64,000 nucleotides of DNA from Solirubrobacteraceae bacterium (GTDB lineage: Bacteria; Actinomycetota; Thermoleophilia; Solirubrobacterales; Solirubrobacteraceae), in the NCBI GenBank assembly GCA_035294545.1, contig DATGKS010000068.1, positions 1,389-65,388 of the forward strand, in the 5' to 3' direction. The position numbers and the translations under genes are program-made. Below are positions 12,214 through 60,356 of this stretch, one piece after another. The notes under the pieces were generated by a model, which saw only the letters and a list, made by a program, of their open reading frames with translations, ran no database searches and had not been told where the DNA came from. Position 1 is the first letter of the stretch. The number at the start of each line of letters is the position of its first letter.

Positions 12214-13463
12214 GGCCGCGCGAGACGCTCGCCTGGCGCGCCGCCGCCACCGCGCTGCTGCGGCAGATCCGCGTCGGCTCGCTCGTGATCGCCGACGGGT
12301 CCGACGGGCGGCGGCTGAGGTTCGGCCGCGGTGCGCCGGCGGCGACGATCGAGGTGCACGACCCGAGCTTCTGGAGGGCGCTGCTGCACGGCAGCCGCGG
12401 GCTCGCCGACTCCTACGCCGCGGGCGTCTGGGATTCCCCCGACCTCGTGGCGGTCATCCGCCTCGCGGCCCGCAATGCGATCGTGATCGACCGGGTCCGG
12501 CGCGCGACGGCGCCGCTGTGGACGCCGCGTCAGCGACTGCGGGCGCTCGTGCGCCCCAACAGCCGCCGGCGCAACCGGCGCGACATCGCCGCGCACTACG
12601 ACCTCGGCAACGAGCTGTTCAGCCGCATGCTCGACCCGACGATGTCCTACTCGTGCGCGCTGTTCGAGCGCGAGGGGATGAGCCTCGAGCAGGCGTCGGT
12701 CGCCAAGCTCGAGCGGGTCTGCGAGCAGCTCGACCTGCGCGCCGGCGATCACGTGCTTGAGATCGGGACCGGCTGGGGCGGCTTCGCGATCCATGCCGCG
12801 GCGACGCGCGGCTGCCGGGTGACGACGACGACGATCTCCGCCGAGCAGCACGCCTACGCGGTCGCGCGGGTCCGTGAGGCGGGCCTGGAGGAGCTCGTGA
12901 CCGTGCTCCGCAGCGACTACCGGGACCTGCGGGGCCGCTACGACAAGCTCGTGTCGATCGAGATGATCGAAGCCGTCGGCTGGGAGCGGATCGGCGCGTT
13001 CCTCGCGCAGTGCTCCCGGCTCCTGCACCCCGACGGCGCGATGCTGCTGCAGGCGATCACGATCGACGATCGCGCCTATGAGGTCGAGAAGGCCTCGCGC
13101 TCGTTCATCAAGGAGTACATCTTCCCGGGCGGCTGCCTGCCCTCGCTCGAGGTCATCCAGCGCAACCTCGCGCGGCGCACCGACCTGCAGACCGCCGACC
13201 TGCACGACCTCACGGCGAGCTACGTGACGACGCTGCGGTGCTGGCGCGAGCGCTTCCTCGCGCACTCCGAGGAGCTCGCGGGGCTCGGCTACGACGAGTC
13301 GTTCCGGCGGCTGTGGACGCTCTACCTCGCCTACTGCGAGGCCGGGTTCGCGGAGCGGCGGATCTGCGACGTCCAGCTGCTGCTCGTCAAGCCGCGCTGG
13401 ATCGCGCCGCACGCAGCCGCCGGCGCGGACTCGCTGGACTCCGCGATCGCGGCGCTGAGATGA
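12210..13463 (+). CDS. Cyclopropane-fatty-acyl-phospholipid-synthase-family SAM methyltransferase
   Basis: 417 aa. Contains YDLGNELFSRMLDPTMSYSCALF and VLEIGTGWGGFAIHAA. GTGA overlap with the DUF1365 gene. Confidence 0.9.
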   Translation: MRPRETLAWRAAATALLRQIRVGSLVIADGSDGRRLRFGRGAPAATIEVHDPSFWRALLHGSRGLADSYAAGVWDSPDLVAVIRLAARNAIVIDRVRRATAPLWTPRQRLRALVRPNSRRRNRRDIAAHYDLGNELFSRMLDPTMSYSCALFEREGMSLEQASVAKLERVCEQLDLRAGDHVLEIGTGWGGFAIHAAATRGCRVTTTTISAEQHAYAVARVREAGLEELVTVLRSDYRDLRGRYDKLVSIEMIEAVGWERIGAFLAQCSRLLHPDGAMLLQAITIDDRAYEVEKASRSFIKEYIFPGGCLPSLEVIQRNLARRTDLQTADLHDLTASYVTTLRCWRERFLAHSEELAGLGYDESFRRLWTLYLAYCEAGFAERRICDVQLLLVKPRWIAPHAAAGADSLDSAIAALR

Positions 13464-13468
13464 ACGGA

Positions 13469-13501
13469 ACGTGCGGCCGAGCCGATGGCCCGGCCGCACG
13501 T
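13469..13501. terminator. Bidirectional hairpin between convergent genes
   Basis: Perfect 11-bp stem ACGTGCGGCCG / CGGCCGCACGT with an 11-nt loop, read directly. It lies 6 nt after the methyltransferase stop and 27 nt after the ferritin-like gene stop. Confidence 0.6.
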
Positions 13502-13527
13502 GCCGCAAAACACGGCGTCGCCTCGGC

Positions 13528-14148
13528 CTAGGAGAGGAAGCCGAGCTTCGTGAGCGTCTTGGCAGCGGTCGAGGCGGTGATCGCCTTCGGCCCGAACGCC
13601 GGAAGCACGGCGTGACCCCCGGCTGCCGCGTCGAGGAAGGAGTAGTGCGTCGCCTCGTTGGCCGCGACACCCGCGGCGGCGACCCGCAGGTCCGGCGAGC
13701 TGAACTCCTTGACCGCGCCCATGTAGGTGGCGACGAACGCCTCCTCCAAGGCGACACCGGTGTCGACGAGCGCCTTCTTCGAGGCGACGTACTTGCCGGG
13801 GACCGTCAGCTTGAAACCGTGCGGGACGTGGGAGCCGAGCATCTTCTTCCAGGCATCCCGGTGTGCGACCTCGTCCTTGTAGGCGGCCACGAAGTAGTCG
13901 CGGTTGCTCAGCTTGAACTTCCGATAGTACGTCTTGAGGATCGCGCCGTAGATCGTCACCGCGAGCGTCTCGGCGATGTAGCCGGTCTGCAGGACCGTGA
14001 TGTCGCTCTTCGTCGTCTTGGCGAACGCGACGCCGTCCATCGTCGCGAGCACGCCGCCGGCCCCGACGAGCATGACGCTGCCCTTGGCGGCGTTGCGGAT
14101 GAACTGCCCGCGGCTGACTCTCGGCGTCGCTTCATTCACTTCGGTCAT
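13528..14148 (-). CDS. Tat-exported ferritin-like domain protein
   Basis: 206 aa. A twin-arginine-like signal (SRGQFIRNAAKG...AFA) is followed by a helical ferritin-like region. AAGGAG lies 5 nt upstream of the ATG. There are visibly more A/T-ending codons than in neighbouring genes. Confidence 0.65.
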   Translation of the reverse strand: MTEVNEATPRVSRGQFIRNAAKGSVMLVGAGGVLATMDGVAFAKTTKSDITVLQTGYIAETLAVTIYGAILKTYYRKFKLSNRDYFVAAYKDEVAHRDAWKKMLGSHVPHGFKLTVPGKYVASKKALVDTGVALEEAFVATYMGAVKEFSSPDLRVAAAGVAANEATHYSFLDAAAGGHAVLPAFGPKAITASTAAKTLTKLGFLS

Positions 14149-14277: not shown

Positions 14278-14661
14278 TCAGTCGCCCGGCTCGCCGTCGA
14301 TCACCCGCTGGGCGATCGCGAACGCCGCGTTCGCCGCGGGCACGCCGGCGTAGATCGCGGTGTGGAGCAGAACCTCTGAGATCTCCTGCGGGGTGAGGCC
14401 GTTGCGGAGCGCGCCGCGGACGTGCATCTCGATCTCGTTCTCGCGCCCGAGCGCGGTGAGCGCGGCGAGCGTGATCATCGAGCGCGCGCGGCGATCGAGG
14501 CCGTCGCGGGTCCACGCATCGCCCCACGCGGTGCGGGTGATGAAGTCCTGCCACGGCTCCGTGAACTCGCTCGTGCGAGCGATCGCCCGGTCGACGTGCT
14601 CGTCGCCGAGGACCGCCCGGCGCACCTCCATCCCGGCGGCCCGACGTTGCTCGTCATCCAT
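14278..14661 (-). CDS. pcaC: 4-carboxymuconolactone decarboxylase
   Basis: 127 aa, carboxymuconolactone decarboxylase family (ITLAALTALGRENEIEMHVRGALRNGLTPQEISEVLLHTAIYAGVPAA). Last gene of the pca operon. Confidence 0.85.
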   Translation of the reverse strand: MDDEQRRAAGMEVRRAVLGDEHVDRAIARTSEFTEPWQDFITRTAWGDAWTRDGLDRRARSMITLAALTALGRENEIEMHVRGALRNGLTPQEISEVLLHTAIYAGVPAANAAFAIAQRVIDGEPGD

Positions 14662-15433
14662 CGCTGCCCTCCAGGTGCTCGATGATCAGGCGGTTGACCT
14701 CCTCGGCGCGCTCGACGCTCGCGAGGTGCGAGCCCGGATCGAGCAGCTCGAAGCGCGCCCCCGGGATCGCCGCCGCGATCCGCTCGCCCTGCGCCGGCGG
14801 GATCGCGCGGTCCTGGGCGCCGGCGATCACGAGCGTCGGGGCGCGGACCGCGCCGAGGTCCGCGACGACGTCGTGGGTGGCGACCGCTTCGCAGCAGCCC
14901 GCGTAGCCCTCGACCGGGGTCTCGGCGATCATCCGCCGGTGGGCGGCGACGACGTCGGGGTGCGCGGCCGCATACGGCGCCGTGAACCAGTTCGCGACGA
15001 CGGCGTCGGCGATCGGCTCGGTCGCGCCGGCGGCGCGGACGGTCCGGGCGCGCTCCCGGAAGGCGTCCGGGTTGAGCGTGTCAGGCGCGCTGCAGATGAC
15101 GACGAGGCGGCCGAGCCGCTCCGGGGCGTGGATCGCGAGCCACTGGCCGACCATCCCCCCGATCGACACGCCCGCGTAGTCCGCCCGCGCGATCCCGAGC
15201 CGGTCCAGCACCCCGATCACATCGCCTCCGAGCTCCGCGATCGTGTACGGCCCCTCCGGCGCCGGCGAGCCGCCGTGGCCGCGGTGATCGAAGCGGATCA
15301 GTCGTCGCGCGGCCGAGAGCGCCCGCACCTGCGGGTCCCACATGGCAAGCGTCGTCCCGAGCGAGCCGCCGAGCAGCAGGACGGGAGCGTCGGCCGGCCC
15401 GTCGGCAACGTGATGGAGCGCGACCGGGCTCAT
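14654..15433 (-). CDS. pcaD: 3-oxoadipate enol-lactonase
   Basis: 259-aa alpha/beta hydrolase with the GVSIGG nucleophile elbow. 8-nt overlap with pcaC. Confidence 0.85.
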   Translation of the reverse strand: MSPVALHHVADGPADAPVLLLGGSLGTTLAMWDPQVRALSAARRLIRFDHRGHGGSPAPEGPYTIAELGGDVIGVLDRLGIARADYAGVSIGGMVGQWLAIHAPERLGRLVVICSAPDTLNPDAFRERARTVRAAGATEPIADAVVANWFTAPYAAAHPDVVAAHRRMIAETPVEGYAGCCEAVATHDVVADLGAVRAPTLVIAGAQDRAIPPAQGERIAAAIPGARFELLDPGSHLASVERAEEVNRLIIEHLEGSDG

Positions 15434-15530
15434 CGCGGCCTCGCCTCGTGGGCGGCGAGCGCGCGGTCGACGAGCGGGCTCACCGCGGCCTCGCCTCGTG
15501 GGCGGCGAGCGCGCGGTCGACGAGCGCGCC
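15421..15530. repeat. Tandem duplication (2 x 50 bp) of the pcaB-stop / pcaD-start junction
   Basis: 15431-15480 versus 15481-15530 are 47/50 identical by direct count. Confidence 0.9.
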
Positions 15531-16604
15531 CGCGCCGTCGGGGAGCGGCCGCTCGCCCATCGCCGCCGTGGCGCGACCCGCGGCCATCCGCTCGGGGTCG
15601 ACGACGAGCCCCTCGAGGAGATCGCGCGCCCACGCCGCCGCCGAGCCGACGAGCACCGTCAGCTCAGGAAGTGTCCCCCACTCCGCCTGCCAGGCGCCGG
15701 CCGCGCGCTGATGCTCCTGCCCCATCGCGCCGAGCATCGTCGCCACGAGGCCGGGCACGCGCGTGACGCAGGCGAGCACCGCGACCGAGGCGACCGGGTT
15801 GCGCTTGTCGGGCATCGCGCTCGAGCCGCCGGCGCGGCCCTCGGCGACCTCGGCGACCTCGGTCTGCGAGAGGAGCGTCACGTCACGGGCGATCTTGCCG
15901 AGCACCCCGGCGCCCACCCCGAGCACCGACGCGGTGAGCGCGGTGCGCACGCGGATCGTCGCCCACCCCATCACCGGCTCGACGAGCCCGAGCTCGCTCG
16001 CCACGCGCGCCGCGACGCGCGGATCGCGTCCGCCGACGGGCCCGCCCATCTGCACCGCGCACTCCGCCTCGCGGACGTGGACGAGGTGGCCGCGTACCTC
16101 GTCGAGCCCGTCGAGCCAGCCCGCGGCGTGCAGGCCGAACGTCGTCGGCAGCGCCTGCTGGAGGAGGGTCCGGGCGATCATCGGCGTCTCGCGGTGCTCG
16201 GCGGCGAGGCGCGCGGCCGCCTCCGCCGCCCCGTCGAGCTCGGCGAGCAGCGGGTCGAGGGCGCGGCGCACGAGCAGCATCAGCGCGGTGTCGACGATGT
16301 CCTGGCTCGTCGCGCCGGCGTGGACGTATTCGGCCGCCGGCGGGCCGAGCGCGTCGCGGAGCGCGGCGACGAGCCCGATGACGGGCGTCGCATGCTCGGC
16401 GAGCGAGCGGCGCAGGCGATCGACACCGATCCGGTCGATGTCCCGGGCGCCGGCGACGATCTTGATCGCGATCTCCTCCGGGATCTCGCCGAGGTCGGCG
16501 AGCGCTCGGGCGAGCGCGACCTCGACGTCGACCAGCGCGCGCAGCCACGCCCGGTCGCTCAGCTGCTCGGCGACCGCCCCGCGCGCGTAGATCGCCTCGA
16601 ACAC
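15480..16604 (-). CDS. pcaB: 3-carboxy-cis,cis-muconate cycloisomerase
   Basis: 374 aa from GTG 16604, fumarate-lyase superfamily (HAGATSQDIVDTAL, GSSAMPDKRNP). The upstream part of the 544-aa track ORF is a spurious extension through pcaG. Confidence 0.85.
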   Translation of the reverse strand: MFEAIYARGAVAEQLSDRAWLRALVDVEVALARALADLGEIPEEIAIKIVAGARDIDRIGVDRLRRSLAEHATPVIGLVAALRDALGPPAAEYVHAGATSQDIVDTALMLLVRRALDPLLAELDGAAEAAARLAAEHRETPMIARTLLQQALPTTFGLHAAGWLDGLDEVRGHLVHVREAECAVQMGGPVGGRDPRVAARVASELGLVEPVMGWATIRVRTALTASVLGVGAGVLGKIARDVTLLSQTEVAEVAEGRAGGSSAMPDKRNPVASVAVLACVTRVPGLVATMLGAMGQEHQRAAGAWQAEWGTLPELTVLVGSAAAWARDLLEGLVVDPERMAAGRATAAMGERPLPDGAGALVDRALAAHEARPR

Positions 16605-16606
16605 GA

Positions 16607-17173
16607 TCAGACGGCGAAGAACACGGTCTCGTGCGGACCCTGGACGTGGATGTCGAAGCGATAGCCACCGTGCCCGTCCGGCTCGGCGAGCAGCGTCTGG
16701 CGGCGGTCGGCGGGCACGCGGGCGAGCACCGGGTCGCCGTCGTTGGCCTCGGGCTCGTCGGCGAAGTAGATGCGGGTGACGACGCGGTTGAGCATCCCGC
16801 GGGCCATGAGCGTCACCGCGAGGTGCGGGGCCTGCAGCCGGCCGCGGGGGTCCTCGACGCGCCCCGGCTTCACCGTGAGGATCTCGTAGCTGCCGTCGCC
16901 GTCCTCGGTCCCGTAGCGCGCGAACCCGTGGAAGCCGCGCAGCGTGGACGGGCCGCCGTGCCCGTGCATGTCCGCATAGCGCCCGTCCGGATCCGCCTGC
17001 CAGGTCTCGATCAGGTGGTCGGGAATCGGGTCCCCGTGTCCGTCGTAGATCGTTCCGTGAAGCGTGAACGCCCCCGGTGTGCCGGGGTCGACGGCATGCG
17101 GTCCGCCCGTCCACGGCAGGCCGATCGCGAAGTACGGGCCGACGGTCTGCGACGGGGTGAGCCTGAAGTTCAC
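16607..17173 (-). CDS. pcaG: Protocatechuate 3,4-dioxygenase alpha subunit
   Basis: 188 aa from GTG 17173 (GTGA overlap with the pcaH stop). Contains VNFRLTPSQTVGPYF and PHLAVTLMARGMLNRVVTRIYF. Confidence 0.9.
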   Translation of the reverse strand: MNFRLTPSQTVGPYFAIGLPWTGGPHAVDPGTPGAFTLHGTIYDGHGDPIPDHLIETWQADPDGRYADMHGHGGPSTLRGFHGFARYGTEDGDGSYEILTVKPGRVEDPRGRLQAPHLAVTLMARGMLNRVVTRIYFADEPEANDGDPVLARVPADRRQTLLAEPDGHGGYRFDIHVQGPHETVFFAV

Positions 17174-17952
17174 AGCTCCTCCTCGAAGAACGTCGCCGCC
17201 GGTCCGCGCAGGTAGATGTCCCACTCGAAGCACTGTGCCCAGTCGGGCTGCGTGCCGTGGATCGAGAACGTCGAGATCATCGCCTCGCGGGCCCTCGGGT
17301 CGCGCACGGAGTTGAAGATCGGGTCATAGGGGAAGAACGGGTCGCCCGGAAAGTACATCTGGGTGACGAGGCGCTGCGCAAACGCCCGGCCCATGAGCGA
17401 GAAGTGGATGTGGGCCGGCCGCCAGGCGTTGTAGTGGTTGCCCCACGGATAGGGGCCCGGCTTGATCGTCGTGAACCGGTAGCGCCCCTCGGCGTCGGTG
17501 AGGCAGCGCCCGGCGCCCGAGAAGTTCGGATCGAGCGGCGCCGGATACCGATCCCACCTGTGGCGGTAGCGGCCGCACGCGTTCGCCTGCCAGATCTCGA
17601 CGAGCGTGTCGCGCAGCGGCTTGCCCTCGGTGTCGTAGACGTGGCCGATGACGATGATCCGCTCGCCGATCGGCTCACCGGCGTGCTGTCGGGTGAGGTC
17701 GGCGTCGAGCTCGGTCATCCCGAGTCGCTCCGAGAGCGCCGGGCCGGTGATCTCGCCGAGCGTGTGCGGGAGGTAGACGAGCGGCTCCTTCGGATGCCGG
17801 AGCGCGGTTGACTTGTAGGGCTCGTAGTCGAGCGGTGGATGCGCGTCCCCGGGCTCGCGCCGGTAGACGAGCGGGGTGTCGGCGATCGGCGTGTAGATCC
17901 GGCGCGGCTCCTCGGGATCGGTGGGGGTGGGCTCGTGCTGCTCGACGGACAT
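17170..17952 (-). CDS. pcaH: Protocatechuate 3,4-dioxygenase beta subunit
   Basis: 260 aa from ATG 17952, preceded by GAGGAGG. Contains VEIWQANACGRYRH and WRPAHIHFSL. Confidence 0.9.
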   Translation of the reverse strand: MSVEQHEPTPTDPEEPRRIYTPIADTPLVYRREPGDAHPPLDYEPYKSTALRHPKEPLVYLPHTLGEITGPALSERLGMTELDADLTRQHAGEPIGERIIVIGHVYDTEGKPLRDTLVEIWQANACGRYRHRWDRYPAPLDPNFSGAGRCLTDAEGRYRFTTIKPGPYPWGNHYNAWRPAHIHFSLMGRAFAQRLVTQMYFPGDPFFPYDPIFNSVRDPRAREAMISTFSIHGTQPDWAQCFEWDIYLRGPAATFFEEEL

Positions 17953-17968
17953 CGTCCGGCCTCCTCGT

Positions 17969-18748
17969 TCAGCGGTTGACGAGCTCCCGCAGCGCGCGGA
18001 GCTCCTCCTCGGTGGCGGGCGGTGTGCGCGCGAGGTCCTCGGCGACGCGGAGCGTCCAGCCGGTCGCCGCGCGCACGTCCTCCACCTCAACCCCCGGGTG
18101 GATCTGGGTGAGCGTGAGCTCGGGCGCCTCGGCGGGATCGAGCTGCACCGGCCGGAGCACGCCAAGATCGGTGACGACCGCGGTTGGGCCGGCGCCGGTG
18201 AACCCGAGGCGCGTGCGGTCCCCGGCGGCGTCGCCGAACCCGACCGTCGTGCGGAAGTCGAGGCGCTCGACGAACGTGCGCGGCGAGTGCGGAGCGATCA
18301 CGACGACCTCTTGGCAGCAGGCGGCGATCTCGGGCGCGCCGCCGGCCCCGGGCAGGCGCGTGCGGGGGCGGGCGTAGTCGCCGATCACGGTCGAGTTGAG
18401 GTTCCCGTGGCGGTCGACCTGGGCGGCGCCGAGGAACGCGACCTGGACGCGGCCGGTCCCGATCCAGTAGTTGAACATCTCCGGGACCGAGACGACCGCA
18501 TCGGCGGTCTCCGCGAGCTCGCCGTCGCCGATCGACAGCGGGATGCGATACGGCTTGGCGCCGATCGTCCCCGACTCGTAGACGAGCACGAGCTCGGGGT
18601 TGTGGACCATGCGCGCGAGCAGCGCCGCGGTGCTCGGCCGGCCGACGCCGATGAACACCGAGCGGGCGTCGGTGAGCAGGCGCGCGGCGACGATCGTCTG
18701 CAGCTCGCCCGTCGTCGCCGGGGTGAGGTCGGTCGCAGTCTCGGTCAT
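17969..18748 (-). CDS. pcaJ: 3-oxoadipate CoA-transferase subunit B
   Basis: 259 aa from ATG 18748 (MTETATDL...). Contains the CoA-transferase B motif LVYESGTIG. An in-frame GTG at 18796 is an alternative start. Confidence 0.85.
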   Translation of the reverse strand: MTETATDLTPATTGELQTIVAARLLTDARSVFIGVGRPSTAALLARMVHNPELVLVYESGTIGAKPYRIPLSIGDGELAETADAVVSVPEMFNYWIGTGRVQVAFLGAAQVDRHGNLNSTVIGDYARPRTRLPGAGGAPEIAACCQEVVVIAPHSPRTFVERLDFRTTVGFGDAAGDRTRLGFTGAGPTAVVTDLGVLRPVQLDPAEAPELTLTQIHPGVEVEDVRAATGWTLRVAEDLARTPPATEEELRALRELVNR

Positions 18749-18830
18749 CGGGTTACGGTCGCGTCCCGGGGGTCGGTCGTCTCGGTCACCCGGCACCCCG
18801 TCCCTGGCGCAGCGCGCTCGTTTCGGTCAT
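18745..18830 (-). repeat. Three start-like units spaced exactly 41 nt apart at the pcaI/pcaJ junction
   Basis: ATG 18830, GTG 18789 and ATG 18748 each begin (A/G)TGACCGA(A/G)AC. Read directly on the minus strand. Confidence 0.85.
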
Positions 18831-19642
18831 CGCGTCGCACCCTCCGACAGCACGTGGTCGTTCATCCAGGCGGTGAACTCGTCGCGGTCGCGGCTGAGGG
18901 TGTCCCAGAACCGGTAGAAGTCGTTGTCGCGCGTCGTGATCCCCGCCGCATAGGAGGGCTGTGAGCCGCCCGGGGCCTCGGCGACCGCGTCGATCACCCA
19001 GCCCGGGATCACGACGCCGCCGGGTCGCGGCTCGAGCGTGTCGACGATCCGCTCGACCGTGACGAACGAGCGCTCGGCGCAGAGCACCGCCTCCTTCTGC
19101 ACGCCGGGGATGCCCCACAATTGCACGTTGCCGTCGCGGTCGGCCTCCTGGGCGTGGACGATCGAGACGTCGGGGCGGAGAGCCGGCACGGCGGTGAGCG
19201 TCTCCCCGGTGAACGGGCAGGAGATCTCCCGGACGTTCGTGCGCTCCCGCAGGTCGGTGCCCACGTAGCCACGCATGACCGCGAACGGCAGCCGGGCCGC
19301 GCCGGCCGCGTAGCGGTTCGCCATGCCGGCGTGGCTGTGCTCCTCGATCTCGATCGCCCGCGGCCAGCCGTGCTCGATCGCGTCGCGGAAGCGGTGCAGC
19401 GACCCGACCCCCGGGTTGCCGCCGTAGGAGAACACGAGCCGGCGGGCGGCGCCCATCCCGATCATCTGGTCGTAGAGGATGTCGGGGGTCATGCGGATGA
19501 GCTCCAGCTCGGTCCGTCCCTGGCGCAGCACCTCGTGTCCGGCGGCGAACGGGATCAGGTGCGTGAAGCCCTCAAGCGCGACGGAGTCGCCGTCGTGCAC
19601 GAGCGCGGCGACCGCGTCGGACAGGGTCGTGATCTCAGCCAC
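18827..19642 (-). CDS. pcaI: 3-oxoadipate CoA-transferase subunit A
   Basis: 271 aa from GTG 19642, preceded by GGGAGG. CoA-transferase family I alpha subunit (VALEGFTHLIPFAAGHE, SYGGNPGVG). Confidence 0.85.
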   Translation of the reverse strand: MAEITTLSDAVAALVHDGDSVALEGFTHLIPFAAGHEVLRQGRTELELIRMTPDILYDQMIGMGAARRLVFSYGGNPGVGSLHRFRDAIEHGWPRAIEIEEHSHAGMANRYAAGAARLPFAVMRGYVGTDLRERTNVREISCPFTGETLTAVPALRPDVSIVHAQEADRDGNVQLWGIPGVQKEAVLCAERSFVTVERIVDTLEPRPGGVVIPGWVIDAVAEAPGGSQPSYAAGITTRDNDFYRFWDTLSRDRDEFTAWMNDHVLSEGATR

Positions 19643-19704
19643 CGGCGACCTCCCGGGTCGGCGTCGCGATCTCAGCCAGCGGCGACCTCCCGGGTCGGCG
19701 TCGT
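19631..19704. repeat. Tandem duplication (2 x 37 bp) of the pcaI SD/start region
   Basis: 19631-19667 versus 19668-19704 are 35/37 identical. A third partial copy (19/23) lies at the pobA 3' end, 19735-19757. Confidence 0.9.
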
Positions 19705-19734
19705 GAATCCGGCCCCGCCGGCGGCCTCCTCACC

Positions 19735-20973
19735 TCAGCCACGCGCGACCTCCGCGGCCAGTGGCGCGGGATCCGGGACCGTGCGCTCGAGCGGCAGCCC
19801 GACATAGTTCTCGGCGAGCGCCGTCGCCTGCGCCCGCGAGGACGCGACGTAGCGCAGCTGGGAGAGCGCGAGCTCGGCGCCGTAGGCGTCGTCGCCGGGA
19901 TCGGTGTGGAGCATCGTCGTCATCCACCACGAGAAGTGCTGGGCGCGCCACACGCGCGCAAGACAGCGATCCGAATAGGCGGCGAGCGGCGCCTCGTCGC
20001 CGTCGCGGAACCGCGCCACGAGGGCCCGCGCGAGCACGGTGACGTCGGCGACCGCGAGGTTGAGGCCCTTCGCCCCGGTCGGGGGCACGATGTGCGCGGC
20101 GTCGCCGGCGAGGAACAGGTTGCCGTGGCGCATCGGGGCGGCGACGAAGCTCCGCATCGGCGTGATCGAGGCCTCGCTGATCGGGCCCTCGTTCAGCTCG
20201 AACCCCTCGCCGTCGAGCCGCGCGTGGAGCTGCGTCCAGATGCGATCCTCCGACCAGTTCTGAAGCGTGTCGTCGGGAGTCACCTGCAGGTAGAGCCGGC
20301 TCACGGTCGGCGAGCGCATGCTGTAGAGCGAGAACCCCTCCGGGTTGCGGGCGTAGATGAGCTCGTCGGTCGCGGGCGTCGCGTCGACGAGCACGCCGAG
20401 CCAGGCGAACGGGTAGCTCCGCTCCCACGTCCGGATGGCCTCGGCGACGGCCTGGCGGCAGACTCCGTGGAACCCGTCGCAGCCGGCGATGACGGCGGCG
20501 CGCAGTTCGTGCGCGGAGCCGTCGTGCTCGTACCGGACGAGCCCGCCCTCGCCCTCGAAGTCCTCGATGTGCACGTCGCGTACCTCGAATCGCAGCGGCA
20601 GCCCGTCGCTCAGACGCGCGGCGATCAGGTCCTTGACGACCTCGGTCTGCCCGTACACGGTGACCGAGCGCCCGCCGGTGAGCTCGTCCATCGGAATGTG
20701 ATGGCGCGTGCCGTCGAAGCGCAGGTAGATGCCTCCGTGGCGCAGTCCGTCGGCATCGAGGCGCTCGGCGACGCCCGCCTCGTGGAGCACGTCGACCGTG
20801 CCCTGCTCAAGCACGCCGGCGCGGACCCGCGCCTCGACGTAGTCGCGGCTGCGAGCCTCGAGGATGACCGCCTCGATCCCCGCCCGGGAGAGCAGTCGCC
20901 CGAGCAGCAGGCCGGCCGGTCCGGCCCCGATGATCGCCACCTGTGTCCGCTCCGCAGCCATCCTGCCCGACAC
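19735..20973 (-). CDS. pobA: 4-hydroxybenzoate 3-monooxygenase
   Basis: 412 aa. Contains VAIIGAGPAGLLLG and LAGDAAHIVPPTGAKGLNLA. The start may be ATG 20961. Confidence 0.9.
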   Translation of the reverse strand: MSGRMAAERTQVAIIGAGPAGLLLGRLLSRAGIEAVILEARSRDYVEARVRAGVLEQGTVDVLHEAGVAERLDADGLRHGGIYLRFDGTRHHIPMDELTGGRSVTVYGQTEVVKDLIAARLSDGLPLRFEVRDVHIEDFEGEGGLVRYEHDGSAHELRAAVIAGCDGFHGVCRQAVAEAIRTWERSYPFAWLGVLVDATPATDELIYARNPEGFSLYSMRSPTVSRLYLQVTPDDTLQNWSEDRIWTQLHARLDGEGFELNEGPISEASITPMRSFVAAPMRHGNLFLAGDAAHIVPPTGAKGLNLAVADVTVLARALVARFRDGDEAPLAAYSDRCLARVWRAQHFSWWMTTMLHTDPGDDAYGAELALSQLRYVASSRAQATALAENYVGLPLERTVPDPAPLAAEVARG

Positions 20974-24666: not shown

Positions 24667-25020
24667 ATGACTGTGATGACGAAATCCACACCCGGCGCCC
24701 TGCTGCTCAGGCGCCGTCGTGACGGGCGACCGGGGCGGGTTGCGGAGCCGGCAGAGGTCGCGGAGCCGGCAGAGGTCGCGGAGCCGGCACGGGTCGCGGA
24801 GCCGGCACGGGGCGCCGAGACCCACCGGGCTCACGCCACCGCCCAGGCCACCGACGCGTCCCCGTCCCGGACCCGCACGCTCGCCGGCGCCCACGGCCCC
24901 CGGCGGCTCGACGTGCCCCAGGACCAGGCGACGTACGCGTGCCGCTGCGGCTTCGTGTTCGAGGCCGCGGTCTCGACGTCGGTCGGCTGCCCGCACTGCG
25001 GCGACGCCCAGGCCTGGTAG
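24667..25020 (+). CDS. Small zinc-ribbon protein with an Ala/Glu/Pro hexapeptide repeat linker
   Basis: The C-terminus YACRCGFVFEAAVSTSVGCPHCGDAQAW carries CxC...CxxC. The middle of the protein is 4 x (VAEPAE-like). The start is ATG 24667; the track gives an upstream alternative at 24658. Confidence 0.5.
   Translation: MTVMTKSTPGALLLRRRRDGRPGRVAEPAEVAEPAEVAEPARVAEPARGAETHRAHATAQATDASPSRTRTLAGAHGPRRLDVPQDQATYACRCGFVFEAAVSTSVGCPHCGDAQAW
24742..24813 (+). repeat. 4 x 18-bp in-frame tandem repeat (GCGGAGCCGGCAGAGGTC)
   Basis: Read directly. The first two units are identical and the last two differ at 2-3 positions. Confidence 0.9.
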
Positions 25021-25304
25021 ACGCAACCGCGCTCTCGACGTCGGTCGCCTGGCCGCGCGGCGACGACTGCCGCCGCTGTCGACCCGAGCCGACCGCCCGT
25101 GGCCAGGACCGGGAGCAATCGACACATCACGATCCCGGGCGCCGCAAACCCCCTGCTATGGTGCCCGCCGCGGTCGATCCTCGGCCGCGAGGCAGCTTGC
25201 TTGGGTCCCGCGCCAAACCGCGCGGTTCGGGTCAGCCGTCGCCTCCCGAACCACAGCGGCCCCGGCCAACGCCGGCGTCCCGCCCCAAGGAGTTGATCAG
25301 CTTC

Positions 25305-47586: not shown

Positions 47587-47885
47587 TCCAGGCCGCGATC
47601 GACACCGCCTCCGTGGCCGCGATCGACACCCGCTCCGTGGCCGCGGGCCTCGCCGCGATCGACACGCATCTGCTGCTCCGCGTGTTCTACACGGCGCTGA
47701 TCGCGGGGGTCGCGGTGTCGGTCGTCTTCTCCCTCACCGTCTACGGCATGACGCGCTCAAGCGACATGCGCCGCGCGGACCGCCCGCTCGCGGCGACGGG
47801 CTACGCGGCACTCGGGATCGTCGGCCTCGCGCTCACGGCGGCGCTCATCGCCTACGGCCTCGTGCTCCTCGCCCACAAGAGCTGA
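47583..47885 (+). CDS. Hypothetical small membrane protein
   Basis: 100 aa from GTG 47583 (GTGA overlap with the pit stop). The N-terminus carries in-frame 24-bp repeats (AAIDTASV / AAIDTRSV / ...AAIDT), followed by two hydrophobic helices. Confidence 0.45.
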   Translation: MIQAAIDTASVAAIDTRSVAAGLAAIDTHLLLRVFYTALIAGVAVSVVFSLTVYGMTRSSDMRRADRPLAATGYAALGIVGLALTAALIAYGLVLLAHKS

Positions 47886-50249: not shown

Positions 50250-51455
50250 ATGGTGCGGCGCGTGCAGTGGGCCGCCGCCGGGCGGCGCCTGACCGTGTGG
50301 GGCGCCCGGGCGGCGCTGATCGTGTCCCTGAGCGGGTCGACGGCGGCCGCAGCCAGCCCGGCGACCGCAGCCAGCCCGGCGACCGCAGGTGGACCGGCGA
50401 CCGCAGGTGAACCGGCCGCCGCGGGCGGCCCCGCGCATGTCAGGGCGGCAGCGACGCCGCCCCCGCCCCGTGCCGCGGCCGCGGCGCGGACATCCGCCAC
50501 CGTCCTGCCGGCCACCGCGACCGCCGCGCAGACGGCCGCCACGGTCCCGCCGCTCGCGCCGGCTCCCGGCCAGCCGGATCCGAGGAGCCTGTGGGCGTCA
50601 CGGCCGATCCCGGCGGTCGTCGCCGCCGCCGACGCGGCGCGGGCGAACGCGCCGCTGCCCAGCCCGATCGTCTCCACGCCGCAGCCCGGCGGGATCCCCG
50701 CAAGCTGCGAGCCGCGCTTCGGAGGCGGCCTGATGCCGCACTCGCTGTGCCGGCTGGGCGATCCGACCGCCCGACGGGTGCTCGCCCTGGTCGGCGACTC
50801 CCACGCCGGGATGTGGGGGTCCGCGCTGATCGACGCGGCCGCCGCGCAGGGGTTCGCGCTCGTGCCTCTCGACAAGCCCGGGTGTCTGCTCTATGCCCTC
50901 AGCCACTTCTCGCTCGCCTGGCCGTGCGCGGGCTGGTACGGGTGGGCCCTGACCGAGGATCGAAAGCTGCACCCGGTCGCCACGATCGTCTCCTTCGACT
51001 TCACCGCCGGCATGCAGGCGCATCCCCGACGGACCGTACGCCGGCTGCGCGCCGTCCTCGAGCACGTCCGGCACGGCGTCCTGATCGTCGACCCTCCCGG
51101 ACAGACGCAGATCCCCTGGGCCTGTCTCGCAAGCCCCTCCGCGACGATGGGCACCTGCTCCTCGCACCTGCCTCCGACGTACGTGCCGCTGATGCGCGCG
51201 ATCGCGCGCTCCGCCCATGTCACCGGCTATCCGGCGATCCCGACGCTGCAGTGGTTCTGCGACCGCGGCATCTGCCCGATGGTCATCAACGACACGATGA
51301 CCCTCGTTGACCACAGCCACATGGCGAGCGCCTACAGCTCCGAACTCGGCCCGCTGCTCAGCGCCACCCTGCGCCCGACCCTCGCGGGCTTCGACCGCCA
51401 CCCGGTCGACCGGCGCGAGCGCCGGGCCGCACGCCGTCACGTCCCTCGCACCTGA
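50250..51455 (+). CDS. Secreted SGNH-hydrolase-domain protein (stand-alone form of the acyltransferase-3 C-terminal domain)
   Basis: 401 aa from ATG 50250. It has a signal-like N-terminus, an Ala/Pro repeat linker, then LALVGDSHAGMW...DKPGC...DHSHMASAY. Confidence 0.65.
   Translation: MVRRVQWAAAGRRLTVWGARAALIVSLSGSTAAAASPATAASPATAGGPATAGEPAAAGGPAHVRAAATPPPPRAAAAARTSATVLPATATAAQTAATVPPLAPAPGQPDPRSLWASRPIPAVVAAADAARANAPLPSPIVSTPQPGGIPASCEPRFGGGLMPHSLCRLGDPTARRVLALVGDSHAGMWGSALIDAAAAQGFALVPLDKPGCLLYALSHFSLAWPCAGWYGWALTEDRKLHPVATIVSFDFTAGMQAHPRRTVRRLRAVLEHVRHGVLIVDPPGQTQIPWACLASPSATMGTCSSHLPPTYVPLMRAIARSAHVTGYPAIPTLQWFCDRGICPMVINDTMTLVDHSHMASAYSSELGPLLSATLRPTLAGFDRHPVDRRERRAARRHVPRT
50349..50420 (+). 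repeat. 4 x 18-bp in-frame tandem repeat (GCAGCCAGCCCGGCGACC)
   Basis: Read directly. It encodes AASPAT AASPAT AGGPAT AGEPAA. Confidence 0.9.
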
Positions 51456-57430: not shown

Positions 57431-57985
57431 ATGAAGAGGTTCGTGATCCCCGTTGGGGTGGTCGCCGCGGCCGTGGCCCTCATCGCGCTGCTCACCTGGG
57501 GGGTCTCGACGCACGCGGACACCGGCTCGATCGACTCGCGGGTGGCGCGCCACGACTATCCGCTCGTTCCGGGCTATCGCCAGCGGCTGCCGCTGCTCGG
57601 GACCAACCGGACGGCGTCGCTCGCCTCGTTCGGCGGACACTGGGTGCTGCTCAACGTATACGCCTCATGGTGCGAGCCGTGCCACGCGGAGGCGCCGCTG
57701 ATGGCCCGGGAGCAGCGGGTGCTCGCCGACCACCACGCGCGGCTCGTGGGCCTCACGTACCAGGACGCCGTATCGGCGACCCAGGCGTTCAACCGTCACT
57801 ACGGCCTGCATGAACCGGTGCTCCGCGACCTGAGCGGCAACTTCGTGCACAACCTCGGCACCTACGCCGTTCCCGAGTCGTTCGTGATCAATCCGCAGGG
57901 ACGGATCGTGGCTCTGATACGTGAGGAGATCTCGGCGAAGTGGCTGAACCAGACGGTGCTCCCGCTCATCTCCGGACAAGCATGA
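57431..57985 (+). CDS. Thiol:disulfide oxidoreductase, TlpA/ResA/CcmG family
   Basis: 184 aa from ATG 57431. A signal anchor is followed by a thioredoxin fold with WCEPC. Confidence 0.8.
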   Translation: MKRFVIPVGVVAAAVALIALLTWGVSTHADTGSIDSRVARHDYPLVPGYRQRLPLLGTNRTASLASFGGHWVLLNVYASWCEPCHAEAPLMAREQRVLADHHARLVGLTYQDAVSATQAFNRHYGLHEPVLRDLSGNFVHNLGTYAVPESFVINPQGRIVALIREEISAKWLNQTVLPLISGQA

Positions 57986-58479
57986 GCCGGTCCGTCCGCA
58001 CGCGCGCCTCGCTCGTCGCCGTCATGCTCGCCGTCCTCGCTCTCGGGGCCGCGCGGATCGCGCCGACCGCGCACGCGGCGGGCCACGCGAGGGTCTCGTT
58101 CACCCAGGCCCAGCAGCAGTTCAACTGCCTGATCTGCCACGAGCCGCTGAACGAGGCGCGCTCGGCGCAGGCCGACCAGGAGAACGCGCTGCTGCGCAGG
58201 CTGATCGCGCGCGGGGACACGATGGCCCAGATCAGGCGCACGATGGTCGCCAACTACGGGGTCGGGGTGCTCGCCAACCCGCCGAAGCGCGGGTTCGCGG
58301 TGCTGATCGTCGTCGTGCCCGTCGCCGTGATCGCGCTCGGAATCGTCGTGCTCGCCTACACGATCCCGCGCTGGCGCCGGCGCGCCGCCGAGCAGGAGCG
58401 CGCGCCCCACGGCGAGCCGCTTCAGCTGAGCGAGGCCGACCGCCGCCGGCTCGCCGCCGACCTCGCGCGCCACGACTGA
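57982..58479 (+). CDS. ccmH: Cytochrome c-type biogenesis protein CcmH/NrfF
   Basis: 165 aa from ATG 57982 (ATGA overlap). A CxxC motif (NCLICHEPLNEA) is followed by TMAQIRRTMVANYGVGVLANPP and a TM segment. Confidence 0.8.
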   Translation: MSRSVRTRASLVAVMLAVLALGAARIAPTAHAAGHARVSFTQAQQQFNCLICHEPLNEARSAQADQENALLRRLIARGDTMAQIRRTMVANYGVGVLANPPKRGFAVLIVVVPVAVIALGIVVLAYTIPRWRRRAAEQERAPHGEPLQLSEADRRRLAADLARHD

Positions 58480-58497: not shown

Positions 58498-58640
58498 CAC
58501 TCGGCACGCTGCGGCTCACCGCGGTCAGTTTCCGCCCCCGTCCGGCACGCTGCGGCTCACCGCGGTCAGTTTCGCCCCCACTCGGCACGCCGCGGCCACC
58601 GCGGTCAGTTTCCGCCCCCGTCCGGCACGCCGCGGCGCTC
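58498..58640. repeat. About 3.5 tandem copies of a 40-41-nt intergenic repeat
   Basis: The anchor GGCACGC occurs at 58503, 58544, 58584 and 58624. Each unit contains the 8-bp palindrome ACCGCGGT. The array lies between the convergent ccmH and argS genes. Confidence 0.85.
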
Positions 58641-58646
58641 CCAGGC

Positions 58647-60356
58647 CTACATCGAGTCGGGAGCGCTCACCCCGAGCAGGAACAGCGCCTGCGCGATCAC
58701 CTGGCGGGACGCCTGCGAGAGCGCGATCCGGCAGGCCTCGACCGACGCCGGCTGGGCGCCGATCACCTTGCAGTCCCGGTAGAACGCGGTGAAGTGCTGC
58801 GCGAGCTCGAGCGCGTAGGCGGCGATCCGGTGCGGCGCCCGACGCTCGGCCGCCTCGGCGACCTCGTCGGGAAACTCGGCGAGCATGCGCACGAGCGCCC
58901 GCTCGGCCTCCTCGAGCGACGGCGCGTCATCCCCGGCGGCCCATCCCTCGCCCTCGAGCGCGGCGGTCACCCGCGTCGCGTCGAGCTTTGAGAGCATCGT
59001 CACGATCCGCGCGTGGGCGTACTGGATGTAGTAGACGGGGTTCTCGCTCGATTGCTTGCGGGCGAGGTCGAGATCGAGGTCGACGGTGCGGTCGTGCGAG
59101 CGCTGGAGCATGAAGAAGCGCGTCGCGTCGACGCCGATCTCGGCGGTGAGCTCATCGAGCGTGATGAAGTCACCGCGACGCTTGGAGAACGCGGCGCGCT
59201 CCTTACCCTCGACGAGATGGACGAACTGCAGGATCGGCATCTCGAGCCGGTCCGGGTCGCCGCCGAGCGCGGCGAATGCCGCCTTCATCCGCGGCACGTA
59301 CCCGTGGTGATCGGCGCCCACCGGGATGATCTGGCGGTCGTAGCCGCGCTCGAGCTTCTCCAGCAGGTAGCCGAGGTCGCCGGCGAGGTACGTGGGCTCG
59401 CCGCCGGTGCGCCGCAGCACCCGGTCCGCATCGTCGCCGAACGCGGTCGAGCGCAGCCAGAGCGCCCCGTCGGATTCGTAGGACTGGCCGCCGCCGGCGA
59501 CGATCTCCAGCGCGCGTTCGACGTAGGAGGGCGAGCCCTCGTGAACGGTCCGCTCGGAGAAGAAGCGGTCGTAGTGCACGCCGTAGCGCTCGAGCGACTC
59601 CTTGATCTCCTCGATCAGCAGCGCCGCCGCGGCGCTTCCCGCCTCCGCAGGCGACATCTCGGTCAGGTCCTCGATCCGGCCCGCAAGCTCGGCGACGTAC
59701 TCGCCCTGGTAGCCGTCCTCCGGCGGCGCCTCGCCCCGCGCCCGGGCGATAACCGATTCGCCGAGGCGGGTGATCTGCCCGCCGGCGTCGTTGAAGTAGT
59801 ACTCGCGCCACACGTCGTGGCCGTGATGGGCGAGGATCCGGCCGAGCGCGTCCCCATAGGCGGCCGACTGGCCGTTGGCGGCGACCATCGGGCCGGTCGG
59901 GTTGGCGGAGACGAACTCCAGCAGCACCCGTTCGGCTCCCCCGGCGCGCAGCGCCCCGCCGCCGCCGAAAGACTGGCCGGCGCGGAGCACCGCGGCGAGC
60001 GCGTCGCGGTACCAGCCGTCGCTCATCGTGAGGTTGACGAACCCCGGGCCGGCGATCTCGAACGACGCGAGATCCGCACCGAGCTCGCGCGCGAGCGCGG
60101 CCCCGACGGTTTCGGCGATCTCGCGCGGCCCCGACCCGAGCGCGGGCGCGAGCAGCATCGCGACGTTCGTCGAGTAGTCCCCCTGGCCGGCGCGCCGCGG
60201 CCGACCGACCTGAAGCCCTGCGGGCGGCTCGGCGCCCGCCGGCGCCTGCACGTCGCCGCTGCGCGCCGCGATCGCCACGCGGGTGACGGCCCGCCGCAGG
60301 GACCCGACGGGATCCGTGCCGTCGCCCGATCCGCCGCCGGCGGCCCGCGCGCTCAC
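58647..60356 (-). CDS. argS: Arginine--tRNA ligase (HIGH motif degenerate)
   Basis: 569 aa. It has the Arg_tRNA_synt_N region, the catalytic core (VSANPTGP..., YYFNDAGGQI, FSKRRG) and the DALR anticodon-binding C-terminus ending in M. Confidence 0.85.
   Translation of the reverse strand: MSARAAGGGSGDGTDPVGSLRRAVTRVAIAARSGDVQAPAGAEPPAGLQVGRPRRAGQGDYSTNVAMLLAPALGSGPREIAETVGAALARELGADLASFEIAGPGFVNLTMSDGWYRDALAAVLRAGQSFGGGGALRAGGAERVLLEFVSANPTGPMVAANGQSAAYGDALGRILAHHGHDVWREYYFNDAGGQITRLGESVIARARGEAPPEDGYQGEYVAELAGRIEDLTEMSPAEAGSAAAALLIEEIKESLERYGVHYDRFFSERTVHEGSPSYVERALEIVAGGGQSYESDGALWLRSTAFGDDADRVLRRTGGEPTYLAGDLGYLLEKLERGYDRQIIPVGADHHGYVPRMKAAFAALGGDPDRLEMPILQFVHLVEGKERAAFSKRRGDFITLDELTAEIGVDATRFFMLQRSHDRTVDLDLDLARKQSSENPVYYIQYAHARIVTMLSKLDATRVTAALEGEGWAAGDDAPSLEEAERALVRMLAEFPDEVAEAAERRAPHRIAAYALELAQHFTAFYRDCKVIGAQPASVEACRIALSQASRQVIAQALFLLGVSAPDSM

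Follow-up and report, generated by a model that had tools for sequence, protein, structure and literature searches.

Tandem self-duplication of overlapping stop/start junctions in the pca operon of a Solirubrobacteraceae bacterium and a possible mini-ORF relay

Three duplicated junctions in one operon

The 64,000-nt stretch of contig DATGKS010000068.1 analyzed here (assembly GCA_035294545.1, a Solirubrobacteraceae bacterium; hereafter the window) carries a pca operon in which three of the seven gene junctions hold tandem duplications of the overlapping stop and start codons; no other junction of the 64-kb window is duplicated. The operon lies on the minus strand (14278-20973) in the order pobA, pcaI, pcaJ, pcaH, pcaG, pcaB, pcaD, pcaC. 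NCBIfam profiles support all eight genes (pcaI and pcaJ as pcaI-like and pcaJ-like), and genes were called with our own simple codon-bias caller alongside an open reading frame (ORF) list and these profiles. All three arrays sit between co-directional operon genes and are oriented as their flanking genes. The window is 72.7% G+C, the GC content of the first, second and third codon positions of the genome is 0.75/0.51/0.92, and the nearest relatives are uncultured Solirubrobacterales of the class Thermoleophilia (PcaH identity 70-86%).

The junction of pcaB (3-carboxy-cis,cis-muconate cycloisomerase, 15480-16604, minus strand; NCBIfam and our own caller) with pcaD (3-oxoadipate enol-lactonase, 14654-15433, minus strand; TIGR02427, E = 1.4e-85) contains a 50-nt unit present twice at 96% identity (15421-15520, minus strand), detected both by Tandem Repeats Finder (TRF, score 198) and by a repeat-family search. 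Each copy takes in the end of pcaB, the stop/start overlap and the initial codons of pcaD, together with a Shine-Dalgarno motif (GAGG). The two overlaps, GTGA (15483-15480) and ATGA (15433-15430), are 50 nt apart, the pcaB stop (TGA 15482-15480) being the TGA of GTGA. From GTG 15483 a 17-codon mini-ORF, VSPLVDRALAAHEARPR (15430-15483, minus strand), runs up to its stop, TGA 15432-15430, in overlap with ATG 15433 of pcaD. Its peptide VSPLVDRALAAHEARPR is chimeric, MSP coming from the PcaD head and LVDRALAAHEARPR from the PcaB tail, and its codon-position GC (0.88/0.59/0.94) is still coding-like.

Between the genes for the CoA-transferase subunits A (pcaI-like, 18827-19642, minus strand; MAEI start kept in relatives) and B (pcaJ-like, 17969-18748, minus strand; relatives begin with MT directly on ATGA or GTGA) there are three overlaps, ATGA 18830, GTGA 18789 and ATGA 18748, spaced 41 + 41 nt. 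Mini-ORF 1 (14 codons, MTETSALRQGRGAG; 18786-18830, minus strand) begins at ATG 18830, which overlaps the pcaI stop as ATGA; its own stop (TGA 18788-18786) overlaps GTG 18789 of mini-ORF 2 (14 codons, VTETTDPRDATVTR; 18745-18789, minus strand), whose stop (TGA 18747-18745) in turn overlaps pcaJ ATG 18748. The 41-nt units have diverged to 21-22 identical positions of 41, and are called neither by TRF nor by the repeat-family search of the window; to judge from their sequences they are old. Their first 12 nt (rTGACCGArAC) are conserved at 10 of 12 positions, against 11-12 of 29 elsewhere (Fisher p ∼0.015-0.019), and the diverged array retains the internal GTGA that closure needs. A further start, GTG 18796, lies in frame with pcaJ, would add 16 residues (a 275-aa ORF) and overlaps the mini-ORF 1 stop by 11 nt. 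It defines an alternative route that would skip mini-ORF 2, leading from pcaI through mini-ORF 1 to the 275-aa form of PcaJ.

The third array follows pobA (4-hydroxybenzoate 3-monooxygenase, 19735-20973, minus strand; NCBIfam NF006091, E = 1.7e-175; stop TGA 19737-19735). Here the junction copies are GTGGCTGA at 19742-19735, CTGGCTGA at 19679-19672 and GTGGCTGA at 19642-19635, a spacing of 63 + 37 = 100 nt, and the 37-nt copies are 93% identical. A single mini-ORF of 35 codons (19635-19742, minus strand) opens at GTG 19742 within an 8-nt overlap with the pobA stop (GTGGCTGA); its own stop, TGA 19637-19635, overlaps GTG 19642, where pcaI begins. GGAGG or GGGAGG precedes every junction copy.

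The initial annotation had described these duplications (50 nt, 41 + 41 nt and 100 nt) as three independent events, each of a length that closes the reading frame. Both the duplications and their closure are borne out: following the chain of overlapping ORFs gives an overlap of -4 or -8 nt at every link. Each unit derives from its own junction: it takes in the end (tail) of the upstream gene (gene A), then the overlap, then the beginning (head) of the downstream gene (gene B). The three sequences are unrelated: blastn finds no match among the three junctions, or between them and the other loci of a 161-locus sample described below, and further copies of the units are absent from the 64-kb window. 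That the three arrays are dissimilar in sequence, both to one another and to the other loci, excludes gene conversion, which the annotation had raised as the alternative to independent events, and likewise a dispersed element, within the scope of the 161 loci and the 64 kb of this genome that were searched. The anatomy of the arrays and the independence of the events are thereby established.

Nor are the duplications assembly artefacts, since an independently assembled contig (L081) has the identical sequence at each of the three. L081, an ENA metagenome contig, matches the window over 3,295 nt and then diverges abruptly inside pcaH (L081 3296-3539), a break that looks like the end of a chimeric assembly or a point of recombination between strains. 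We saw no copy-number variation at the three sites, L081 being the only near-identical sequence and thus a sample of one with the same copy numbers. Besides L081, no closer relatives from which to reconstruct the events were found; protein identity with the best relatives is 81-86%. Among relatives, pcaI/pcaJ is a plain ATGA or GTGA in most of ∼110 loci, pobA/pcaI is a plain overlap, ATGGCTGA, in L082 and L083 (ancestral RTGGCTGA), and the most syntenic metagenome-assembled genome (L010) is duplicated at none of the three junctions.

The remaining four junctions of the operon are ordinary and without duplication: pcaJ/pcaH has a 16-nt spacer containing GAGGAGG, pcaH/pcaG is a GTGA, pcaG/pcaB is TGAtcGTG and pcaD/pcaC is ATGGATGA. 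Longest-ORF calling misplaces two starts in the operon, giving a pcaJ of 275 aa and a pcaB of 544 aa, and leaves the mini-ORFs unannotated.

Junction duplications among relatives

The initial annotation had proposed a survey of relatives. Ours drew on genomes and metagenomes and covered 2.0 Mb in 161 loci surrounding pca operons, with 1,915 called genes. In a frame-blind scan the 35 nt around each stop were sought again 8-250 nt downstream; at a threshold of at least 23 of 35 identities this returned 46 matches where 6.4 were expected. Diverged units are missed by TRF, so anchored scans were added, including one anchored on NTGA. Each case was then assigned to a class by tracing its overlapping ORFs, link by link, as far as a homology-verified downstream gene. 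A first-pass classing by offset from the first copy was abandoned: it had labeled L053, L115, L016 and L036 as in-frame and L089 and L080 as third-frame, all of which close when the chain is followed. An orthologue-anchored chain search at pcaI/pcaJ proved too permissive, admitting TTG starts and starts within the aligned region, and was excluded from the counts.

The survey gave the same outcome as the window. Units that close are found at pcaI/pcaJ (29 nt in L086, 17 nt in L040), at pcaB/pcaD (17 + 17 nt in L089; 120 + 120 + 119 nt in L053, Lentzea tibetensis NZ_VOBR01000012), at the junction of pcaJ with a thiolase gene (68 nt in L112; 86 + 98 + 8 nt in L115) and at pcaG/pcaD, where a 46-nt unit lies on the 8-nt overlap ATGTCTGA (L036). 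Two non-pca junctions also close: L080 has a 13-nt unit with two NTGA motifs inside, and L016 has 36 + 36 + 29 nt (101 nt start-to-start), closing onto an ATGA without a homology-verified downstream gene. The sole non-closing case is the 15-nt unit at pcaB/pcaC of L151, which truly extends the downstream protein in frame at its N-terminus (MDDTA-MDDAA). The tally is thus 12-13 closing cases, one in-frame extension and no third-frame case, with ∼10 independent cases beyond the window, in 156 related loci, and recurrence is established. Over all loci ∼2-4% of coupled junctions are duplicated; the rate is ∼3.6% at pca junctions and 1.6% at others, an unconvincing enrichment. In a contrast set of repeats that cover a stop without a coupled start, or are purely intergenic, there are 1, 3 and 4 cases for lengths of 0, 1 and 2 mod 3.

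Several cases are informative in their details. L085 and L086, 92% identical, show the states before and after duplication: the junction is a lone cgATGAcc in L085, and L086 has the 29-nt duplication, the unit being bounded at both ends by the 7-nt microhomology CCACCAA. This heptamer occurs in phase in both genes, at P-T-K of the PcaI tail and at A-T-N of the PcaJ head. In L089 the 17-nt units have moved GGAGG away and leave the pcaD start without a Shine-Dalgarno motif, while the internal GTGA is kept. In L. tibetensis a 120-codon ORF between pcaB and pcaD (L053 12522-12884) ends exactly on the pcaD GTGA and is made of three ∼40-codon chimeras of PcaD head and PcaB tail. A +1 indel (119- to 120-nt unit) has fused two mini-ORFs there and the chain closes at the last unit all the same; the 63 + 37 array of the window behaves likewise, with fused mini-ORFs and closure at the last unit.

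Two inserts of ∼200 nt were also observed between coupled genes, one at L112 2955-3167 and one on the minus strand of L053 (strand positions 13386-13589), of 69 and 67 codons respectively. Both are flanked by junction copies of 15-25 nt, in the manner of a target-site duplication, and both close the frame. The insert ORF on the L053 minus strand has coding-like GC (0.79/0.55/0.91), that of L112 is flat.

Other tandem repeats are present in the window, those listed in the initial annotation among them. A weakly coding plus-strand ORF (24673-25020) holds an in-frame 18-nt repeat (x4.7, 24736-24819), and a diverged duplication of ∼62 nt (24967-25085) covers its stop (TAG 25018-25020), with no coupled downstream gene. 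In-frame repeats within coding sequence comprise 24 nt x2.3 (47591-47645), 18 nt x3.7 plus 42 nt x1.9 (50341-50552) and 33 nt x1.9 (13726-13788). These further in-frame repeats indicate that slippage is frequent in this genome. A 40-nt unit (x3.3, 58502-58636; 89% matches, TRF score 221) contains TGAccgcgGTGA motifs and fills the spacer between the convergent genes at 57982-58479 (plus strand) and 58647-60356 (minus strand). Its length is 1 mod 3 and it has GTGA, and it was considered as a counter-example to closure; lying between convergent genes, it is at no junction.

Frame closure and its sources

Frame closure was also assessed independently of sequence similarity. We took 558 co-directional neighbor pairs with gaps of 12-400 nt and counted those bridged by chains of mini-ORFs with overlapping stops and starts; as a control the frame was perturbed by deleting or inserting 1 or 2 nt at 6 nt before the downstream start. 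Closed chains bridge 50 of the 558 gaps, against 25, 20, 19 and 25 after perturbation, an enrichment of ∼2.3x (chi-square p = 0.0003). It is seen when only NTGA overlaps are admitted (28 vs 12 and 8 perturbed), among the loci from Illumina metagenomes (22 vs 7 and 6) and at a GC content of at least 0.70 (37 vs 17 and 12). When the halves of the gaps are randomly re-paired, 33 ± 4.4 chains close (maximum 42 in 40 trials), compared with the real 50. An enrichment of closed chains is thus established.

For a duplication to close, its length L must equal (start - stop) mod 3, which is algebraically equivalent to the two end-points of the duplication, one in gene A and one in gene B, falling in the same codon position of their respective frames. 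Codon periodicity makes in-phase microhomologies commoner, and for this reason a uniform null of 1/3 is wrong. Among the tail/head microhomologies at 429 intact NTGA junctions, those whose duplication would close make up 47%, 52% and 58% for match lengths (k) of at least 4, 5 and 6, rising to 61% for at least 7 and 68% for at least 9. At the window's own three junctions, collapsed to single copies, the closing share is 0.53, 0.53 and 0.64 at k of at least 4. A bias toward closure at birth is therefore demonstrated, as a bias of opportunity.

These values bear directly on the initial annotation, which had set the three closing junctions against a chance of 1 in 27 and had concluded that duplications breaking the coupling are purged, or that the junctions are maintained as spacers. 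The estimate is unsound, given that it takes the uniform null: under the phase-biased null three out of three has p ∼0.18 rather than 0.037. Lengths of 0 mod 3 likewise retain coupling, by extending the downstream protein. Pooled over the window and its relatives, the excess of closure over the phase-biased null is modestly significant (p ∼0.01-0.05). With 12 of 13 cases closing, p = 0.0009, 0.009 and 0.047 under closing shares of 0.47, 0.58 and 0.68; a conservative count (10 of 11) gives p = 0.003-0.09, and against the uniform null p<0.001. The pooled data suggest, without proving it, an extra selective filter for a relay beyond the birth bias. Selection for a relay, as first claimed, thus remains likely, though the window alone does not show it, and the first interpretation is supported in part: closure recurs among relatives and closed chains are enriched, but the 1-in-27 figure overstates the case.

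We consider that local tandem duplication of the junction by in-phase slippage, with the resulting mini-ORFs acting as a relay that preserves coupling, is the best explanation of these observations, and we hold it with moderate confidence. Slippage between short in-phase microhomologies in the gene A tail and the gene B head would duplicate the overlapping stop/start. An in-phase join would let the copied start open a short chimeric ORF (gene B head followed by gene A tail) that closes on the copied stop, itself in overlap with a start. Having completed gene A, a ribosome could then re-initiate at the mini-ORF start, stop after a few codons and begin again on gene B, so that termination-reinitiation coupling would survive 50-100 nt of added DNA. 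According to two reports, such coupling requires a stop and start that overlap or nearly abut (PMC6728339; PMC10666635). An insertion of 50-100 nt would accordingly uncouple the genes unless it was itself translated and its reading frame closed on the next start, and this is what a closing unit supplies. Closure would have two sources: the birth bias given by codon periodicity and, we infer, the loss of variants in which translation from the copied start would pass over the real start in another frame. Judging from the sequences, the feature conserved, if anything is, would be frame and start context rather than peptide.

The most serious alternative is that the duplications are neutral by-products: slippage scars without a role, which close because in-phase microhomologies are common and stops rare, the downstream gene being served by its own Shine-Dalgarno motif. 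Several observations weigh on that side and against a relay. Between 47% and 68% of microhomology opportunities are closing already, as are more than half at each window junction, and phase bias in the mutational process would by itself predict 50-65% closure. At 73% GC stop codons are rare and open frames cheap, and random re-pairing still closes 33 of 558 gaps; below 66% GC the enrichment of closed chains vanishes (4 vs 4 and 3 perturbed). The long units (37, 41 and 50 nt) each carry their own GGAGG, GAGG or GGGAGG, 5-10 nt from the copied start, so that fresh initiation downstream could make the mini-ORF irrelevant. The older mini-ORFs have flat codon-position GC, the coding GC3 signature being gone, which indicates that their peptides are not conserved. 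The window is rich in other tandem repeats, its three closures taken by themselves are unremarkable under the phase-biased null, and several of the relatives' cases were classed after inspection, with gene starts from our own simple caller. Against a neutral origin, the pooled tally exceeds even a null of 0.58-0.68 (p = 0.009-0.047), and the diverged 41-nt and 17-nt arrays still hold the internal GTGA on which closure depends. The 17-nt units, moreover, strip the Shine-Dalgarno motif from the downstream start, which makes re-initiation the obvious predicted route to pcaD in L089. On balance we think a purely neutral origin possible but the less probable account.

Other explanations fare worse. 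The mini-ORFs might not be separate at all, the downstream proteins simply beginning further upstream, and for pcaJ there is indeed the in-frame GTG 18796 with its 275-aa ORF, just as a true extension is known in L151. The issue is limited to pcaJ, however: for pcaD and pcaI the copied upstream starts are out of frame. The PcaJ, PcaI and PcaD proteins of relatives begin at positions aligned with the last copy, and the route from GTG 18796 passes through mini-ORF 1 in any case; misplaced starts are thus an unlikely explanation. We give very little credence to a dispersed or mobile element, resembling the mycobacterial interspersed repetitive unit (MIRU) and residing at start codons, or to gene conversion between loci. 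The architecture agrees with the description of MIRUs in PMC4473831 and PMC12548453, and the ∼200-nt inserts of L112 and the L053 minus strand do lie between short junction copies, but every unit is made from its own gene A tail and gene B head, and neither the blastn comparisons nor the window supplied a second site. Equally improbable is a structured intercistronic RNA (a processing site, an attenuator or a protein-binding repeat) under selection with the ORFs incidental. Tandem repeats within a GC-rich transcript would suit such an element, yet predicted folding energies are no better than those of shuffled sequences (z = -0.88, -0.22 and +0.20), the junctions have no Rfam match at E<=1, and the frame rule is left unexplained.

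Relation to known systems and implications

MIRUs offer the closest comparison. They too are tandem units of 40-100 nt between operon genes of the same orientation, with small ORFs whose ends overlap the flanking stop and start (-4 nt) and with no dyad symmetry, a property matched by the fold z-scores of the window arrays. MIRUs are thought to insert at start codons, with the MIRU ORF coupled at -4 nt (PMC12548453, citing Supply et al. 1997), and of the 12 classic loci in M. tuberculosis nine carry units of 53 or 77 bp, both 2 mod 3 (PMC3558156, Table 2). MIRU lengths therefore fit the closing rule, as do those of the pca arrays. The differences are equally clear: MIRUs are a dispersed family thought to be mobile, whereas the pca units are locus-specific copies of their own junctions, and the present units occur in Thermoleophilia and other Actinomycetota, not in mycobacteria. 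The dispersal that defines MIRUs is not found here, there being no similarity among the window arrays, elsewhere in the 64 kb of this genome that the search covered or among the 161 loci.

Ordinary termination-reinitiation coupling, known at overlapping stop/start codons such as ATGA and TGATG (PMC6728339, PMC10666635), shares with the arrays an ATGA, GTGA or 8-nt overlap (GTGGCTGA) at every link, and the relatives have the plain overlap. In the arrays, by contrast, two to four overlaps stand in series by way of throw-away mini-ORFs, and coupling is predicted from sequence. Upstream short ORFs and the bicistronic designs of biotechnology likewise use a short ORF to pass ribosomes on to a following start at -4 nt (PMC12548453); the pca mini-ORFs differ in lying between two genes, in being fed, as predicted, by the ribosome terminating upstream and in being born by duplication. 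Variable-number tandem repeats and minisatellites, finally, arise as head-to-tail copies bounded by short direct repeats, as CCACCAA bounds the unit in the L085/L086 pair. The pca units span a gene boundary, unlike such repeats, so that their length mod 3 has a translational consequence. The literature we searched, of which coverage was incomplete, contained no description of junction self-duplication or of the phase-bias argument.

For annotation, the practical consequence is that duplicated junctions are places where longest-ORF calling errs on starts and misses mini-ORFs. The arrays also yield a tolerance rule for insertions at coupled junctions, namely that the unit length be congruent to the start-minus-stop offset modulo 3, and, with one to four mini-ORFs in a chain, they are natural test series for the efficiency of bacterial re-initiation. 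Codon periodicity tilts junction duplications toward harmless outcomes ahead of any selection. A wider proposal, tentative and in our own estimate rather doubtful, is that self-duplication of junctions in high-GC Actinomycetota is recurrent and selectively filtered, the products serving as relay spacers and possibly tuning subunit ratios. If this is true, junction self-duplication may be the birth stage of MIRU-like elements, before their dispersal, and would provide a plausible origin for MIRU-type repeats.

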